A stretch of 64,000 nt of DNA from Gemmatimonadota bacterium. GTDB taxonomy: Bacteria > Gemmatimonadota > Gemmatimonadetes > Palauibacterales > Palauibacteraceae. This document shows positions 45,894 through 56,933 of this stretch, piece by piece; position 1 is the stretch's first letter; each line of letters starts with the position of its first letter. The position numbers and the translations under genes are program-made. The DNA lies in assembly GCA_963666735.1 (NCBI GenBank), contig OY762926.1, forward strand, positions 1,984,001 through 2,048,000, written 5' to 3'. The notes below the pieces were generated by a model. That model saw only the letters and a list, made by a program, of their open reading frames with translations. It did no database searches and was not told the origin of the DNA.

Positions 45894-46208
45894 ATGAACG
45901 ACAGCGGCAAGCGCGGAGGTCCGATGCTGAATCCGCCGCACCTGGGCGAACTTGTCCGCGAAGGCATGGACGAGGTCGGCTGGAACGTGACTCGGACGGC
46001 GGCTCATCTGGGGTGCGAGCGCGGGACTTTATCGCGACTGCTGAACGGGAGGGCCGGCGTGTCGGCGAACATGGCGCTTGCCTTGGAGGCCATCGGCTGG
46101 GGCACGGCGGATCACTGGATGCGAATGCAGGCGAGCTATGAGCTTGCACAGGCACGAAGGGCACATGACTGGCGGGAGGACACGCGGGCGCACGAAGCCG
46201 TCCCATAG
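45894..46208 (+). CDS. higA: HigA-family HTH antitoxin
   Basis: NPPHLGELVRE, TLSRLLNG..VSANMALAL, WMRMQASYEL. Confidence 0.92.
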   Translation: MNDSGKRGGPMLNPPHLGELVREGMDEVGWNVTRTAAHLGCERGTLSRLLNGRAGVSANMALALEAIGWGTADHWMRMQASYELAQARRAHDWREDTRAHEAVP

Positions 46209-50157: not shown

Positions 50158-51144
50158 TTGCTAACCGTTCTTGAGATTTGTGCGGGGGGAGGGGGGCAGA
50201 CCTTGGGTCTCGAGGATGCTGGGTTCGAGGCTGCGGGGCTCGTCGAGAACGACCGTCACGCTTGTGCCACGCTCCGCTTTAACCGGCCGCGTTGGCGCGT
50301 GATCGAAGGTGATGTCCGGGAGCTGGATTCGGCTGAATTCCGGGGCGTAGATCTGTTTGCGGGCGGGGTACCCTGTCCGCCGTTTTCCGTAGCGGGAAAA
50401 CAACTCGGGAGTGACGACGAGCGTGATCTGTTCCCGGCCGCCCTCCGCCTGATCGAAGACATCGAGCCGCGCGCCGTCCTGCTTGAGAATGTCCCTGGCT
50501 TGGCCACGAGGCGGTTTTCCGCCTACCGCCGACGGCTCGCCGCGCGTCTGACCGCACTCGGCTACTGGCTTGACTGGAGGGTGTTGAACGCGAGCGAGTT
50601 CGGCGTTTCGCAGCTGCGCCCCCGGTTCATTCTTGTCGCCGTAAGGAGAAACCTCTCGCCGTATTTCGCTTGGCCTCTGCCTTCCGGCCCCGGCCACTCC
50701 GTCGGCGAACTGCTTGCGGACCTGATGGGCGCGGGCGGCTGGCCGGGTGCGGCTGATTGGGCGGCGGCGGCGAGCAACATCGCACCCACGCTTGTTGGAG
50801 GCTCCAAGAAGCACGGCGGGGCTGACTTGGGACCTACGCGGGCCAGGGCCGCCTGGCAGAAACTCGGTGTCAACGGGCTCTCTCTTGCCGACGCACCTCC
50901 CGGACCCGGCTTCCCGGCGGACTCGATGCCGCGTCTGACCTTGCGCATGACGGCACGCATCCAGGGATTTCCCGATTCATGGCAGTTCCAGGGAGGAAAG
51001 ACCGCGGCATACCGCCAGGTAGGGAACGCCCTGCCGCCGCCGGTTGCAGAGGCCGTGGGCACTTCCCTTCGCAGGGCGCTTATGGAGAAGACGCCGACCT
51101 ACGATGTAGACGAGCAGTTGCCGTTGCGGGCTCAAACCGTATGA
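50158..51144 (+). CDS. C5 cytosine DNA methyltransferase, NgoMIV/NaeI-like (probably GCCGGC)
   Basis: EICAGGGG, GGVPCPPFS, ENV, QLRPR, target-recognition region PTLVGGSKKHGGADLGPTRA, YRQVGNA. Confidence 0.9.
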   Translation: MLTVLEICAGGGGQTLGLEDAGFEAAGLVENDRHACATLRFNRPRWRVIEGDVRELDSAEFRGVDLFAGGVPCPPFSVAGKQLGSDDERDLFPAALRLIEDIEPRAVLLENVPGLATRRFSAYRRRLAARLTALGYWLDWRVLNASEFGVSQLRPRFILVAVRRNLSPYFAWPLPSGPGHSVGELLADLMGAGGWPGAADWAAAASNIAPTLVGGSKKHGGADLGPTRARAAWQKLGVNGLSLADAPPGPGFPADSMPRLTLRMTARIQGFPDSWQFQGGKTAAYRQVGNALPPPVAEAVGTSLRRALMEKTPTYDVDEQLPLRAQTV

Positions 51145-51203
51145 CTGAAGAGATCCTGCTGGCGGCTCGCCGGGAACTGCTTCCGCTCGATCTCGTCGTC
51201 TGA
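51141..51203 (+). pseudogene. 20-aa remnant of an NgoMIV-like restriction endonuclease
   Basis: ATGA-coupled mini-ORF MTEEILLAARRELLPLDLVV in the R-gene slot; LPLDLxV is the NgoMIV-family C-terminus as recalled. Confidence 0.6.
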
Positions 51204-51215
51204 GCGCATCCCGCG

Positions 51216-51707
51216 GTGGATTACAAGCCCAAGTCCGCGGATGAGATCCGGCGCAACATGTCAGCCATCCGGAGCACGGGAGGCAAGACGGAGGTTGCCC
51301 TCCGCTCCATGCTTCACCGCCGCGGCCTCAGGTTTCGCAAGAACTATGCGAAGCTCCCGGGGAGACCCGATATCGTCTTCGTCCGTGCCCGTGTCGTAGT
51401 GTTCATCGATGGCGACTATTGGCACGCGCGGGTTCTACGGGAGCGCGGTCCCGAGGCCCTCGAACAGCGCATGAAGACCGCAAACCGCGCATACTGGATG
51501 ACAAAGTTCACGAAGCGTGTGAAACGCGACGACCATGTGACGGCCACGCTTGAGGAAGACGGCTGGACGGTGGTCAGGCTCTGGGAATCCGATGTCCGAG
51601 CCAACTTGGACGAGGCGGCCAGGGCAATCGAAAATTCCGTAAGGTTGGGTTTGGGACACGGCCGGGAGCGTCAACGGAGAGCGGGTGCAGCGTGCAGGTC
51701 CACCTGA
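51216..51707 (+). CDS. vsr: Very short patch repair endonuclease
   Basis: RRNMSAIRS..KTEVALRSMLHRRGLRFR, LPGRPDIVF, FIDGDYWH, GWTVVRLWE. Confidence 0.93.
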   Translation: MDYKPKSADEIRRNMSAIRSTGGKTEVALRSMLHRRGLRFRKNYAKLPGRPDIVFVRARVVVFIDGDYWHARVLRERGPEALEQRMKTANRAYWMTKFTKRVKRDDHVTATLEEDGWTVVRLWESDVRANLDEAARAIENSVRLGLGHGRERQRRAGAACRST

Positions 51708-52573
51708 TCGACGGCACCTACGAGTTGTTCCGGCACTTCTACGGAGCGCCCTCGGCGAAGAACGCCGGGGGTCACGAGGTCGGGGCGGCGCGCGGCGTCG
51801 TGGCTTCGATGCTCGGCCTCCTCGAGGGCGGGGCCACCCACATCGCCATCGCCACCGACCGCGTCATCGAGTCCTTCCGCAACGAGCTGTGGCCCGGCTA
51901 CAAGGACGGCTCCGGCATCGATCCGGCGCTCCACTCGCAATTCCCCCTCGTCGAGGAGGCGCTCGCCTCGGCGGGGTTCGTCGTGTGGCCGATGGTGCGG
52001 CACGAAGCGGACGACGGGATGGCTGCCGGCGCCGCGATGGCCGCCGCCGACCCGCGCGTGGAGCGCGTCTTCATCTGCACGCCGGACAAGGATCTCGCCC
52101 AGTGTGTGGAAGGCGACCGCATCGTGCAGTTCGACCGCCGGCAGCGGATCGTGCGCGACGAGGCCGGCGTCATCGAGAAGTTCGGGGTCCCTCCCGCCGC
52201 GATCCCCGACTGGTTGGCCCTGGTGGGAGACTCCGCGGACGGATTCCCCGGCATCCGCGGCTTCGGCGCCAAGACCGCCGCCGCGGTGCTCGCCCGCTAC
52301 GGCCGCATCGAGGACATCCCCTCGGACGGACGAGATTGGGATGTCTCCGTGCGCGGCCCCGAACGCCTCGCGCAGACGCTGCGCAGCGGGCTGGACGACG
52401 CGCTCCTCTTCCGCCGCCTCGCCACGCTGGTCCGCGAAGCGCCCGTCTCAGCGAGCGTCGACGACCTCGAGTGGACGGGCCCCCGGGACGATTTCGACCT
52501 CGTCGCTACGATACTCGACGCCCCTGACCTGCTTCCCCGTATCCGGCGACTCGCGGAAGACCGGGGCCATTGA
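51692..52573 (+). CDS. 5'-3' exonuclease / flap endonuclease (stand-alone PolI-N-like)
   Basis: LIDGTYELFR, SFRNEL..YK, EADD, DKDL, LVGDSADGFPGIRGFGAKTA. Confidence 0.92.
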   Translation: MQVHLIDGTYELFRHFYGAPSAKNAGGHEVGAARGVVASMLGLLEGGATHIAIATDRVIESFRNELWPGYKDGSGIDPALHSQFPLVEEALASAGFVVWPMVRHEADDGMAAGAAMAAADPRVERVFICTPDKDLAQCVEGDRIVQFDRRQRIVRDEAGVIEKFGVPPAAIPDWLALVGDSADGFPGIRGFGAKTAAAVLARYGRIEDIPSDGRDWDVSVRGPERLAQTLRSGLDDALLFRRLATLVREAPVSASVDDLEWTGPRDDFDLVATILDAPDLLPRIRRLAEDRGH

Positions 52574-52644
52574 ACGGGCCGGGCTCTCGCCGATGAGGCC
52601 ACCTCGCTAGGCAACGCCACTCTCCGGACCTTTCGCATCTCACA

Positions 52645-52719
52645 ATCATATGATATCCTTGGCGGCGTGAACCAGCACACGAACTCCGTTTCACAAGCAC
52701 TAGTGCGATCATATGATCG
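52645..52719. promoter_or_regulatory. Tandem palindromic operator sites ATCATATGAT
   Basis: ATCATATGAT at 52645-52654, CGATCATATGATCG at 52706-52719, and GCACTAGTGC at 52697-52706, all upstream of the TA-like operon. Confidence 0.6.
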
Positions 52720-52728
52720 ACATCTCGC

Positions 52729-53115
52729 TTGAGATCCGCAGAAGATCGCTCGAAACAGGACAAAGCGGACCAGTATCCACAGATACGCGGACAGCCGATC
52801 GCCCTGGTCCGGAACGGCAGGCGGAAAGCTGCCTTTACTCACGAGCGGCCGGCCGATGTTCGTTTTCGCGAGGTACTTCGTCCCGAGTCTGGATTTCCGC
52901 TGACCGAGCGTGGCATGTGGGAAGAGATCGTACGTCTTCTGGATTCGGGAGTGCGGTTGACCTGTCTCCCGCTGCGCCAGCCCCCCGGCGAGAAGGCTTG
53001 GGTGTTTCGAGCGAGACTCGCCCCCGGTTTTCCGGTCATCTACGTAAAGCTGCAGATGCTGGGCGGTACCGTACTCGTACGCAGCTTCCACCCCAGTGAG
53101 CGTGGCCATGAATAA
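52729..53115 (+). CDS. MqsR-like type II toxin (5' end uncertain, possibly frameshifted)
   Basis: C-terminal VIYVKLQ..VRSFH resembles the MqsR-family YxK..SF motif; overlaps the antitoxin start by 8 nt. Confidence 0.55.
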   Translation: MRSAEDRSKQDKADQYPQIRGQPIALVRNGRRKAAFTHERPADVRFREVLRPESGFPLTERGMWEEIVRLLDSGVRLTCLPLRQPPGEKAWVFRARLAPGFPVIYVKLQMLGGTVLVRSFHPSERGHE

Positions 53116-53532
53116 GATCGCCTCGAAACCAACCGTCCTCGGCCGGATCGTCGGTCCCGAGACCTGCGAGATGTGCGGAAGTCCTGGGTTGAAGACCGAA
53201 CTTGTGCGAAATCCATTCACCTATGGGGTTGGGTCCGACGCCGTGGAACTCAGCGCTGACATCCCCGTCCACACGTGCGAGACCTGCGTGGTCTCGTTTA
53301 CGGATGAAGCGGCGGAGAACATTCAACACGACGCCGTGTGCCGACACCTTGGTGTCCTCACGCCGGACGAGATCCATGCCCTCCGCAGGAGCCACGACAT
53401 GACTCGCGCGGCCTTCGCCCGGCTGACCGGCTTCGGCGAAGCAACTGGGCTTACCCCGTTTTAGTGGACAGGTGAAAGTGGTGGTTTCCTCCATTCTCGC
53501 CACCTCGCGGGAGAGGGCCGCGGCCCGGGGGG

Positions 53533-54384
53533 TCACGCCGCCTCTCCTTTCTCGCGCGCCTCGAAGCTGGCGGGCGACTCGTAGCCGAGGCTCGAGTGCC
53601 GCCGGCGCGGGTTGTACCAGCCCTCGATGAACCGGAACACCCCCCGGCGGGCCTCGCCGGGCGTCCGGAACGAGCGCCGCCAGATCAGTTCGCACTCCAG
53701 CGTGGCGAAGAACGACTCGCACATGGCGTTGTCGTAAGCGTCGCCCACCGAGCCCATCGAGGGCCTGACCCCGGCCCTCCGGCAGCGCCCGCCGAAGGCG
53801 TAGGACGTGTACTGGCTGCCTTGGTCGCTGTGGTGGATCACCCCGTCGGGGCGCCGCTGCGCCAGCGCCATGTCGAAGGCATCCAGCACCAGGGACGTCC
53901 TCAGGTGCGTCGCCATCGACCAGCCCACGATGCGGCGGCTCCAGGCGTCGAGCACGACGGCCAGATAGAGGAAGCCCGCCCAGGTCGGCACGTACGTGAT
54001 GTCGGCCACCCAGAGTTCGTCGGGTCCGGAGGCCGAGAAGTCTCGGTCCACGAGATCCGGCGCGGGCCTGGACTTCGCGGCCCGCTTCGTCGTACTGCCC
54101 TTGCGGCGCCGGCTCACCCCTTCGATCTCCGCCGCCCGCATCAGCCGCGCCACCCGGCCCACACCCGCCTCGCGGCCCCGCGCCTTGAGTTCCGCATGGA
54201 CCCGCGGCGCCCCGTACGTCCCCCCGCTCATGGCGTGGATCTCGACGATCTCCGCACTGAGCGCCTCGTTCTCCCGCGCCCGCCGAGACGGCTCCCGCGT
54301 CCGCCACGCATAGTACCCGCTCGGGGAGAGACCCAGCAGGCGGCACATCACGCGCACGGGATACATGGCCTGGTGATCGCTCAC
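53533..54384 (-). CDS. IS3 transposase OrfB (DDE integrase core)
   Basis: TYGAPRV, WVADITY, LDAWSRRIVGW, HHSDQGSQY, DNAMCESFFATLE; reached by -1 frameshift at AAAAG (54440-54444) or by GTGA coupling. Confidence 0.93.
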   Translation of the reverse strand: MSDHQAMYPVRVMCRLLGLSPSGYYAWRTREPSRRARENEALSAEIVEIHAMSGGTYGAPRVHAELKARGREAGVGRVARLMRAAEIEGVSRRRKGSTTKRAAKSRPAPDLVDRDFSASGPDELWVADITYVPTWAGFLYLAVVLDAWSRRIVGWSMATHLRTSLVLDAFDMALAQRRPDGVIHHSDQGSQYTSYAFGGRCRRAGVRPSMGSVGDAYDNAMCESFFATLECELIWRRSFRTPGEARRGVFRFIEGWYNPRRRHSSLGYESPASFEAREKGEAA

Positions 54385-54689
54385 GAACCGGAACCCCCCC
54401 GGGGGATCGATCCGCTCTCCTTGGCGAACCAGGCCGTGGCTTTTGCCAATATGTCGCGCTCGATCTTCACCCGGCGAAGCTCGCGCTTCAGTTCCCGGAC
54501 TTCCTTGCGCTCGACCGTCGTCAGACCGTCGGTGCGACGCCCCTCGTCCAGGTCGGCCCGCTCCACCCAGCGCCGGATCGCCGTCGCCGAGGGCTCGAAC
54601 TCGCGAGCCAGCCGGTCCGCGCTCCGTCCCGCACGGACCAGTTCCACCATCCGCGCCTTGTACTCCGGCGCGTATCTCCGTCCCGACAT
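54381..54689 (-). CDS. IS3 transposase OrfA (HTH + leucine zipper)
   Basis: MSGRRYAPEYKARMVELV..ERDILAKATAWFA; GGAGG RBS. Confidence 0.9.
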   Translation of the reverse strand: MSGRRYAPEYKARMVELVRAGRSADRLAREFEPSATAIRRWVERADLDEGRRTDGLTTVERKEVRELKRELRRVKIERDILAKATAWFAKESGSIPRGGSGS

Positions 54690-54993
54690 GTGACACCTCC
54701 TCGTTGTGACCAACGCTCAAAGGTGTCCACCAAATCGGGGTAACTCCAGCAACTCTTGCACGGTGGGAGCGTCGCGACGTGATCCAGAACACTTCTTGCG
54801 ACCGGTATCTGCGGCTGCTGCTGTATGGTGCGAACGTCGACCGCCTTCGGGCGCTGGTCTCGGATACCTCACCTGAGGGGCCGGGTGTGGTAGGCACGCG
54901 CGCGACAGTGCGGTTCGTCCACCTTTCCGTTGAACGCCAGCGATCCTTCCGGCGCGACACCGCCGGATGGCGCCCTCGGGGCGTGGCCGCCTG

Positions 54994-56886
54994 ATGTACG
55001 TCGCCACGTTCTACTCCTACAAGGGCGGTGTTGGCCGAACGCTAGCCCTGCTCAATGTAGCGTACGAGATGGCCGATACCGGGCTCAAGGTGCTCGTCGT
55101 CGATTTCGATCTTGAGGCACCTGCCATCCGCGCCGACCGCTGGAAGTCGCGTGGCACCGGGATTACTGCCGCAACTGCCGCCAGTTCCGACCACGCCGGG
55201 ATGGTGGAGTACGTAGGCACATATCTCGATACGGGGCAGGCTCCACTTGTGGCCGACTACGTCGTCGACGCCACGCCCGACGAGTGTGCGGGCGAAATCG
55301 GACTGATGCCGGCTGGGCGGATTAACGACAGTTACGGTGATCGCCTGAACCAGATCGACTGGAACGCCCTCTACGCAGACCACGATGGGTATCTGATGTT
55401 CGAGGACCTGCGGGCGCAGTGGGAGACTCTCGGCTTCCATTACGTCCTCGTGGATTCCCGCACCGGCTTTACCGATGTCGGAGGCATATGCACCCGTCAC
55501 TTACCAGACGCCGTCGTCACGATGTTTCGCCCAGACGACCAGAGTCTGCGGGGTATCAGTGGTGTGGTTCAGTCCATCCGCAACGAGAAAACAACACCGC
55601 GACGGAAGCATGCAATCAACTTGCATTTTGTCATGGCTTCGATCCCCGCCGCCGACGACGAGGATGGGATCCTAGCGGAACATCGTAGGGCCTTCGCTGA
55701 ACACCTCTCCATCCCACGCGGCCACCTTCTCGAGGTCAAGCAATACCAAAGCATGGACCTCTTGACGCAGCCCATCTACACTCGCACGCGGCCGCGCACA
55801 TCCCTGGCTCGCTCTTATCAGGCGCTTGCAAAGGGGATTCGTGCTCTCAACGTGCTCGACCGCGACGGAGTGCGGGATTATCTGCGGCACGCTGGGAAAC
55901 GCCGGCGTTTCCCCAAAGACGACGACTACCTCAAGCGGATCCGGCAAGAGTACGATCAAGACGCGAGCGTGCTGGGGGAGCTTGCCGCGGCCCAATACTA
56001 CCGAGGCTTCATCATCGACGCGGTGGATCTCCTCGAGGCAATGGCGGAGCTGGGGCCTCTGAGTACGAGTCACCAGATGACGCTGGCCGAAGCTCGTCAC
56101 GTCACAGATGATCACGAGGGTGCTGCCAAGGCACTCAAGACGTTCTTTCAGAGCTCGGTTGACGACTCGGATTCCACCGATCCGGAGACCACCTACCGAC
56201 TCGTCCTCCGCGGTCTCAACATGCTGGAAGGACGGGGCGAGGACCGCGCTTCCTACGTTGACGGAAGTCCGGTCATTCGCCGGCTGTCGTCGCCTGACCA
56301 GGCAGCCGTGGCCGGGACTCTAGATCTGTCACCATCCGAGGGGCGCGTCGCAGCCGCAATCCTCGAGAGTGTCCTGCGCGACCCGGAGCTATCCTCAGAG
56401 GAAGGGGAGCGGTGGAAATGGGCGCTAGCGTTCGCTCTTATGACCACGGGCCGCTTTGCGGATGCCAGGGTCTACTTCGTAGAGGCCTCTGAGCAGCCGC
56501 CAAGTCCGTCGCTAGTTCCCTCGATCTTCAACTTGGCGATGGCGATTTGGGCGGATACCGGTACACCAGATCGGGAAGCGTTCAGACGGGTGTTGGAGGC
56601 GGTCGAGGCCGAAGAGGACACATCGACCTGGCTGAACGACAACGCGAACGCCCTTCAGGCGCTTGCGGTCGCGGCGTGGTTCGCAGGAAGGCGGGATGAA
56701 GCGCACGCACACCTGAAGGCGGCAGAAGACGCTATCAAGAGCCGCAAGACGATGATCAGCTGCTGGTCCTACACTCGGGTTTCACGAGACGAATTCCGGG
56801 CCCATTGTGGTGAGATACGTACCTTGCTATCCGGGTCAGACATCGAGCCTGCCTTCATGCGGAGGAATGCCCCTCCAGCACCGTGA
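54994..56886 (+). CDS. ParA/MinD-like ATPase (KGGVGRT variant) fused to a TPR-like helical region
   Basis: TFYSYKGGVGRT, VVDFDLEAP, YVLVDSRTGFTDVGGICT; helical C-terminal region of about 330 aa; TGATG coupling to the antitoxin stop. Confidence 0.8.
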   Translation: MYVATFYSYKGGVGRTLALLNVAYEMADTGLKVLVVDFDLEAPAIRADRWKSRGTGITAATAASSDHAGMVEYVGTYLDTGQAPLVADYVVDATPDECAGEIGLMPAGRINDSYGDRLNQIDWNALYADHDGYLMFEDLRAQWETLGFHYVLVDSRTGFTDVGGICTRHLPDAVVTMFRPDDQSLRGISGVVQSIRNEKTTPRRKHAINLHFVMASIPAADDEDGILAEHRRAFAEHLSIPRGHLLEVKQYQSMDLLTQPIYTRTRPRTSLARSYQALAKGIRALNVLDRDGVRDYLRHAGKRRRFPKDDDYLKRIRQEYDQDASVLGELAAAQYYRGFIIDAVDLLEAMAELGPLSTSHQMTLAEARHVTDDHEGAAKALKTFFQSSVDDSDSTDPETTYRLVLRGLNMLEGRGEDRASYVDGSPVIRRLSSPDQAAVAGTLDLSPSEGRVAAAILESVLRDPELSSEEGERWKWALAFALMTTGRFADARVYFVEASEQPPSPSLVPSIFNLAMAIWADTGTPDREAFRRVLEAVEAEEDTSTWLNDNANALQALAVAAWFAGRRDEAHAHLKAAEDAIKSRKTMISCWSYTRVSRDEFRAHCGEIRTLLSGSDIEPAFMRRNAPPAP

Positions 56887-56933
56887 CTGGCATTGTAGGC
56901 GATGGATTCGGGCACCCCTTGCCTTCATCAGAG

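Follow-up and report, generated by a model that had tools for sequence, protein, structure and literature searches.

The three-gene cassette at positions 52574 to 56933 of the window (the whole stretch of 64,000 nucleotides of Gemmatimonadota contig OY762926.1 that was analyzed, to which all positions refer) belongs to a widespread, mobile toxin-antitoxin (TA) system. A toxin with an MqsR fold and an MqsA-like antitoxin with a C-terminal tail are followed by a nucleoside triphosphatase (NTPase) that joins a ParA-like domain to a region resembling tetratricopeptide repeats (TPRs). In our favored reading, to which we give a probability of roughly 0.55, the intact cassette is an autoregulated three-protein TA system that works like the toxin-antitoxin-chaperone (TAC) systems, with the ParA-like NTPase in the place of SecB. 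The evidence that carries this reading is the conserved order of the three genes, an antitoxin tail found mainly where the NTPase is present, and a structure model in which this tail lies on the ParA domain. The features of the copy in the window, whose antitoxin gene is interrupted by an insertion sequence (IS), are listed here; HTH stands for helix-turn-helix.

52574 to 56933, no strand: whole cassette, inserted between a gene for a 5'-3' exonuclease and a convergently oriented serine-hydrolase-like gene
52645 to 52654, no strand: putative operator palindrome 1 (ATCATATGAT)
52690 to 52717, plus strand: sigma-70-like promoter (TTCACA, 16 nt, TATGAT), by consensus match only
52706 to 52719, no strand: putative operator palindrome 2, over the -10 box
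52729 to 53115, plus strand: toxin of MqsR (RelE/BECR) fold, 128 aa, TTG start, assigned by model and fold comparison
53108 to 53445, plus strand: antitoxin 5' part, with a CxxC...CxxC zinc domain and the first HTH helices (TIGR03830, E 2e-8, below cutoff)
53446 to 54748, minus strand: IS of the IS3 family, 1303 bp, with imperfect inverted ends and a 5-bp target duplication (53441-53445 / 54749-54753)
54749 to 54994, plus strand: antitoxin 3' part, with the end of the HTH, linker and tail (57% identity to the intact orthologue in genome G013)
54905 to 54991, plus strand: tail motif (aromatics at 54914 and 54968) and terminal Ala-Ala
54994 to 55863, plus strand: ParA/MinD-like NTPase domain (KGGVGRT, DFD, DSRTG; NF047398), with the main part of the predicted tail-binding patch at 55360-55428
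55864 to 56886, plus strand: fast-evolving helical/TPR-like region with an SCW motif conserved at its C terminus, presumably a sensor

The three genes are each present in a single copy in the genome. An earlier reading of this DNA from its sequence only had described three co-oriented, overlapping open reading frames (ORFs) in an AT-richer segment, preceded by palindromes, and an antitoxin with a tail beyond its HTH, and all of this was borne out. The toxin ORF overlaps the antitoxin start (53108) by 8 nt, and the antitoxin and NTPase genes are coupled via TGATG at 54992-54996. The GC content is 0.58 in the leader, 0.62 in the toxin gene and in the antitoxin 5' part, 0.67 in the antitoxin 3' part, and 0.61 in the NTPase gene; the two flanks have 0.71 and 0.68, and both the IS and the window as a whole have 0.695. 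Without the IS, the antitoxin frame is open for 192 aa, of which about 45–50 form the tail beyond the HTH. The cassette is an insertion, as the flanking exonuclease and hydrolase genes nearly adjoin in most of 28 congener loci.

Among 61 relatives, matches to the toxin and to the full NTPase were found in the same 4 genomes; in the three other than that of the window, the genes are adjacent and free of the IS. A DNA pattern built on the toxin alone detected at least 121 stretches in GTDB genomes, and the 80 listed with their flanks were analyzed. Antitoxin and then NTPase followed the toxin in 67 of these, while 6 carried a TA pair without the NTPase despite sufficient downstream DNA; the remainder lay at a contig edge (3), were IS-disrupted or rearranged (3), or were false (1). 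The hosts belonged to Pseudomonadota, Planctomycetota, Acidobacteriota, Binatota, Latescibacterota, Spirochaetota, Myxococcota, and Gemmatimonadota. Of 119 metagenome stretches, 80 were analyzed. In 56 of these, ParA followed the antitoxin; it was clearly absent from 1 and not seen within about 950 bases in 2 more, while 10 others were not of this family and 11 ended too early. Searches with ParA only gave the same arrangement: all 12 matches (window included) in 401 genomes of the phylum lay behind an MqsA-like gene, as did all 4 close ones of 9 viral loci and 4 close ones of 5 matches in another class, the fourth of which (G440) is L085 of the toxin-only set. These counts are descriptive only, because related genomes are not independent. 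Loci with similar toxins also have similar ParA proteins (pairwise identities, r 0.84), and the genes therefore travel together. The earlier suspicion that the three genes form a unit thus stands: their order is kept in 67/80 toxin loci and 56/57 informative metagenome loci, which is not chance.

The distribution of the cassette is patchy (4/61 relatives; 11/401 genomes of the phylum), and copies sit at unrelated housekeeping sites, with some on plasmids or next to integrases. Besides one false match, 13 of 86 toxin ORFs look broken. Clean deletions were seen: one fused the toxin in frame into the antitoxin start (L166, in G144), one joined the HTH into the middle of ParA (L169, in G122), and one lies inside the toxin (L035, in G261). 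Intact copies are present in cultured bacteria, on plasmids of Rhizobium gallicum and Massilia forsythiae and in Bradyrhizobium and Pyxidicoccus, so that the broken copy in the window is not needed for further work.

Behind a variable linker, the antitoxins end in a motif, F-R-x-L...[FWY]-x-[LP]-R, which was present at 65 of 70 loci with the NTPase and at 1 of 9 without it (13% in shuffles). The sole carrier without NTPase (L062) is a fusion to unrelated sequence and is tail-negative when scored by length. In both L060 and L062, tail and NTPase are missing, and the antitoxin frame there continues into unrelated long ORFs (508 and 395 aa, respectively). In held-out metagenome loci, the motif was found in 45 of 56. 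The antitoxin ends in Ala-Ala (AA) or Val-Ala (VA) in 41 of 73 cases, compared with AA ends in 1/61 NTPases and 0/73 toxins. Such ends resemble a ClpXP degron, by analogy with the Mycobacterium tuberculosis (Mtb) antitoxin HigA1 (VA) and CmdA (AA), whose ends act as ClpXP degrons according to Mets et al. (bioRxiv 10.1101/2024.02.24.581848); ClpX- and ClpP-like motifs are encoded in the host genome.

Among 79 loci, none combined an intact toxin ORF and a tail with the lack of an intact ParA domain. All 6 intact-toxin loci without ParA lacked the tail, and both loci that kept the tail beside a broken ParA have a broken toxin. At 7 loci, the NTPase stops right after the ParA domain, and the tail is kept in all six that have an antitoxin. 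At two loci (L093, at 634-2613 from the match, and L254), the gene behind an MqsRA-like pair encodes a divergent KGGVGR ParA whose insert is different, and the antitoxin tail differs as well; these ParA proteins lack the conserved patch described below and their antitoxins lack the tail motif, making a second tail-ParA code possible.

The complex model covered the last 38 residues of the antitoxin in the window and two ParA domains, together with ATP and Mg. The tail-ParA pair scored 0.62, compared with 0.00 for the best of 3 controls, and runs agreed in at least 75% of contacts, with a predicted local distance difference test score (pLDDT) of at least 65 for the partner. The score mark used is reached by 116 of 157 solved pairs and 2 of 215 mismatched ones, and is only roughly applicable here given our own alignments and the ligands present. 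The modeled site lies on one ParA subunit rather than across the dimer and comprises residues 81-86, 123-145 (the main part), and 159-169. Both motif aromatics are in the interface, where they touch residues 83-86, 123-145, and 169 and face W123, Y127, Y133, E137, D138, and Q142. W123, Y127, E137, D138, Q142, and P84 are conserved at 91–100%, and the facing set including Y133 at 83–100%. The model supports, and does not prove, binding of the tail to the ParA domain. The TPR region, against which the earlier reading had proposed to test the tail, is probably not its partner: the retention of the tail where the TPRs are lost and the complex model both favor the ParA domain.

That the toxin is MqsR-like, as had been proposed, holds for its fold and finds no support in sequence profiles. 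Searches of Pfam, NCBIfam, PADLOC, and PDB by sequence or profile gave nothing useful, and none of 123 toxins matches Pfam MqsR_toxin. The structure model of the toxin (pLDDT 90.5) matched Escherichia coli MqsR best (Foldseek probability 1.00, E 0.014); in the comparison with MqsR 3hi2 (VIA), Z was 10.1 at a root-mean-square deviation of 2.8 over 90 aligned residues, the next row having Z 5.2. Its relatives fall into 337 clusters, and MqsR_toxin appears in 17% of one cluster in the ESM Atlas, a lead at most; a word-based protein search found 4 relatives only. Y105, K107, F120, and H121 are invariant across 123 toxin sequences, and all four are kept in the window. From its fold, the toxin is probably an RNase of the MqsR type. 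A weak toxin match in G120 (E 3e-4) was rejected, as it matches none of the deep toxin, antitoxin, and ParA models. The antitoxin is MqsA-like in its sequence, with a zinc finger followed by an HTH; its half scored 14.4 bits against a cutoff of 30 for Pfam MqsA, and its plasmid relatives are annotated as MqsA family.

Upstream of the toxin gene, TCATATGA was found in 65 of 86 loci, where base shuffles lead one to expect 0.12, and in 42 of 56 held-out metagenome loci; 62 of 86 loci carry at least two copies with up to two mismatches (0.22 expected). In the 3.98-Mb genome of the window, ATCATATGAT occurs at two cassette sites (52645 and 52708) and nowhere else. A single promoter-like site was found in 52500-53200, where 0.2 were expected, and its -10 box lies under the second palindrome. 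The recognition region of the antitoxin HTH is conserved, matching the conserved operator. We predict that TCATATGA is an operator shared across phyla.

The NTPase passes the cutoff of NF047398 AAA_KGGVGR (142.1 bits; cutoff 90), and its ParA domain has a Soj/MinD fold over 290 residues. The Walker A arginine (R15 in KGGVGRT) is present in 66 of 66 NTPases. After the sensor-1 DxD, P43 is invariant, and the next residue is G in 79% of the family and A in the subclade of the window. The partition profile NF041546 gives 23.9 bits against a cutoff of 180. Pfam TPR matches are weak and below cutoffs (best TPR_19, E 2e-4), and the TPR region has a mean pairwise identity of 0.28, compared with 0.55 for the ParA domain. 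The NTPase also matches PADLOC PDC-M28B (E 1e-21), while toxin and antitoxin match no PADLOC model. Two variants stand out. In L009 (G035), the NTPase has 794 aa and a different C-terminal part after about residue 513, with the tail motif unchanged, which is a sensor exchange; in L336 (G651), a distant KGGVGR ParA-TPR protein lies behind an unrelated HTH protein ending in AAAA.

We propose the following mechanism for the intact cassette. As the fold suggests, an MqsR-type RNase toxin would be held by the zinc domain of the antitoxin, and the antitoxin HTH, to judge from conservation and position, would repress the promoter via the ATCATATGAT palindromes. The tail, with an observed motif and a modeled binding mode, would dock by its two aromatics on the conserved patch of the ParA domain. 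To judge from how tails are lost and from the AA/VA ends, an unbound tail may destabilize the antitoxin, so that the pair would be "addicted" to ParA. Most speculatively, the variable TPR region may sense an invader or stress product and the nucleotide state of ParA may change; the tail would then be released, the antitoxin cleared, and translation halted by the RNase as an abortive defense. The analogy to TAC systems that had been drawn from the sequence fits both the anatomy of the tail and the pattern of tail loss. A role in phage defense is plausible and weakly supported by context: some copies adjoin restriction-modification (RM), TIR, Schlafen, or cyclic-oligonucleotide-based antiphage signaling system (CBASS)-like genes. 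One copy (L099) has a SLOG gene on one side and a gene for a SMODS/DncV-like nucleotidyltransferase on the other.

Several points weigh against this proposal. The rule for the tail motif was set after the first sequence set had been viewed. The strict motif is absent from 5 of the 53 loci that are intact and full-length and from 11 of the 56 held-out loci, and in the latter AA/VA antitoxin ends also drop to 17 of 56. One locus (L277) has an intact toxin ORF and a tail with ParA cut at residue 222, and in another (L048) the toxin ORF is present with an antitoxin displaced and broken by IS elements. One deletion may have removed both NTPase and tail in the NTPase-less loci, and because this may explain both losses, the loss of the tail there is not independent proof of addiction. 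The conservation of the interface is modestly above that of other non-motif residues (0.71 vs 0.62). A defense-type gene is the nearest called neighbor in 8 of 55 loci, a count based on crude gene calls (59/110 without a Pfam match) and without baseline, and no cassette match was found among 50,697 annotated phage records.

The contact between tail and ParA equally fits an alternative that we think unlikely though well worth considering, in which ParA is only a trigger: the tailed pair would be stable alone, and sensor-activated ParA would pull the antitoxin off the toxin via the tail. A switch role of this kind has been proposed for TA-ParA systems by Li et al. (cited below), the locus with the cut ParA keeps toxin and tail, and tail loss may be a by-product of deletion. 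This alternative does not predict that an intact toxin and tail without ParA occur together in 0 of 79 loci, nor the 7 NTPases cut just after the ParA domain, nor the AA/VA ends. The same wiring could also serve a selfish addiction cassette kept by post-segregational killing, with no role in defense. The patchy spread, the unrelated insertion sites, the plasmids and integrases, and the frequent decay (the 13/86 broken toxin ORFs, with clean toxin deletions in G144 and in a G026 remnant described below) all suit such an element. Against this stand a 340-aa, fast-evolving TPR region that is costly and typical of sensors, the PDC-M28B match, and the copies beside RM, CBASS-like, TIR, and Schlafen genes; moreover, abortive-infection systems commonly decay as well. 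We regard a purely selfish element as improbable.

A persistence of antitoxin and NTPase without a detected toxin (G144, G245) could mean that ParA itself is the effector or a second toxin, with the tail as a ParB/MinE-like peptide that sets the ATPase cycle and MqsR as a backup. The tail is arginine-rich, and the modeled site includes the insert region named as the ParA partner surface by Li et al. Yet the loci found include none in which the NTPase stands by itself or shows toxicity-type constraints, truncated NTPases are common, and the modeled tail lies on one subunit and not across the dimer. We give this option little credence, and almost none to the idea that a TA pair and an unrelated ATPase came to lie side by side by chance. 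The 6 of 80 loci with a TA pair only and enough downstream DNA would agree with it, but the order kept in 67/80 and 56/57 informative loci, the translational coupling, and the co-varying identities of toxin and ParA speak against it. Among the NTPase-less TA pairs, no swap to SecB was noticed (L064 and part of L077 being outside the view).

The tail also appears on a second, unrelated antitoxin family. On a Polymorphobacter plasmid (L212:3091-5842), beside two tyrosine recombinases and a HipA module, a small gene is followed by a tailed HTH antitoxin and a ParA-TPR gene. We take the small gene to be HicA-like, a label without a profile match. The ParA-TPR protein is nested among the MqsRA-linked ones (Shimodaira-Hasegawa-like approximate likelihood-ratio test support of 96 in a quick tree), and the HTH protein, unrelated to the MqsA-like family, ends in the same tail motif. 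Among 120 listed relatives of this antitoxin, 29 of the 43 long forms carry an F-x-L-R/K tail, and none of the 77 short forms does; genomic context covers two loci only, and the one short-form locus examined has no ParA behind the antitoxin. We tentatively entertain, at somewhat less than even odds, that a portable ParA-addiction tail, often degron-ended, has been grafted on unrelated antitoxins (MqsA-like and HicB/AlpA-like), with ParA-TPR guarding it until the TPRs sense infection. The ParA link of the second family comes from one locus, whose own tail score is equalled by 25 of 1402 control ends. No loci of this family were found in viral contigs, and it was never upstream where ParA matched in the class of G440 (5 matches in 401 genomes). 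If true, the idea would mean a second, independently evolved chaperone addiction, nucleotide-gated and with an exchangeable sensor.

The copy in the window is probably disarmed, by the IS truncation of the antitoxin and by a proline in helix 1 of the toxin. The IS interrupts the antitoxin HTH, leaves a truncated antitoxin of 118 aa that keeps the zinc domain while HTH and tail are cut off, and parts the NTPase from the cassette promoter. By analogy with the N-terminal domain MqsA-N, which alone neutralizes MqsR while MqsA-C binds DNA (Brown et al. 2009, PMC2791442), this remnant could still hold the toxin. With the IS, repressor and tail are gone, which is how TAC pairs get free of their chaperone. 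The IS has 8 near-identical copies (99.8–100%) in the genome. The genome (G000) shows a recent IS3 expansion, with a second family of 12 copies at about 73% identity to that in the cassette. Contigs from three sequencing runs, one of which may be the source, extend into the IS, while a contig from a fourth (run X8) skips exactly 1308 bases and is otherwise identical on both sides; an IS-free allele therefore exists. The toxin carries Pro23 in helix 1, at a column with Pro in 1 of 123 sequences and with Leu in the 92% relative, and orthologues have ATG where the window has its TTG start, which together suggest decay. The IS-free run shows no difference at the Pro23 codon, a hint that toxin damage preceded the IS; it is merely a hint because this codon sits at the contig end. 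The first Walker B aspartate is replaced by His149, which was rejected as damage, since it is common to the 5 nearest full-length relatives and the 99% relative.

At the same site as in the window, G026 holds a cassette remnant (L036; G026:C1, about 2001900-2002350), in which promoter and toxin are deleted from the first palindrome, the antitoxin is decayed, and the NTPase is gone; an intact copy lies elsewhere in G026. One gene upstream of the cassette in the window, a C5 cytosine methylase gene and then a Vsr endonuclease gene (50158-51707) lie in lower-GC DNA. An AAA_14/DUF4143 ATPase gene at 58598-60136 matches PADLOC PDC-S01 (E 3e-20), and a HigA-family antitoxin gene at 45894-46208 has about 10 paralogues in the genome. 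A search for repeats brought up neither a CRISPR-like array nor one of another kind. For a protein that shares 99% identity with the NTPase, the source label is Ca. Palauibacter, and some sequencing runs with contigs of the locus are labeled sponge metagenome.

The sequence-only reading suggested that the module might be undescribed, a view that has been overtaken. Li, Burroughs, and Aravind (bioRxiv 10.64898/2026.10.19.760177) predict TA-ParA systems computationally, including, as ConB2 subtype iii, MqsR-MqsA with ParA-TPR, and suggest that ParA acts as the switch by which the toxin is set free; because of this preprint, the architecture of the cassette is known in silico. Shared features in its main text are a type II TA with a third gene, ParA fused to TPRs, the Walker A arginine, and conserved gene order. 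There the theme is called "entirely distinct" from SecB TACs, whereas the tail evidence presented here suggests TAC-like logic. The words degron, ClpX, palindrome, and operator are absent from the main text, and figures and supplements may show more. New relative to that text are the tail motif, the AA/VA ends, the tail-on-ParA model, the tail on an unrelated antitoxin family, and the cross-phylum operator. In literature searches, with subscription journals outside their coverage, neither the tail motif nor the operator nor any experiment on the system turned up, and no paper used the term PDC-M28. That PADLOC candidate resembles the cassette in its component B, which the NTPase domain matches; toxin and antitoxin are unmatched.

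With TAC systems (MqsRAC, HigBAC, CmdTAC, Mtb TAC), as described in the covered parts of the sources, the cassette shares the order of toxin, antitoxin, and third gene, a portable C-terminal antitoxin extension with key aromatics, AA/VA ends, and binding of a third protein (here modeled only). Aromatic motifs, AA/VA degrons, and portability make up the logic of chaperone addiction (ChAD) there (bioRxiv 10.1101/2024.02.24.581848; Bordes et al., PMC5105189), and removal of the tail frees the pair from the chaperone. The covered part of PMC11980606 describes no ParA-linked module. Unlike in TAC systems, the third protein here is a 630-aa P-loop NTPase with TPRs and not a SecB tetramer, and sensing would use a repeat domain and nucleotide state rather than competition for a chaperone pocket. 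E. coli MqsRA is alike in toxin fold, zinc-finger and HTH antitoxin, toxin-first order, and palindromic operators; at 21% identity and without a Pfam MqsR match, the system here differs in its longer toxin, the 45–50 aa tail, and the third gene. Partition ParA/Soj and MinD share the fold of the NTPase domain, but here one finds KGGVGRT, a TPR fusion, TA neighbors, and no ParB or parS neighbor.

The TA-ParA class was predicted as late as October 2026, and the covered parts of the preprint give neither a mechanism nor experiments. The tail motif, the modeled ParA site, the AA/VA ends, and the operator open the way to single-residue tests of whether ParA guards the antitoxin or strips it from the toxin. 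If ParA does guard the antitoxin, TAC logic would have arisen two times, each time with a different and unrelated partner, and sensor-gated toxins could be built from interchangeable tail-ParA pairs.

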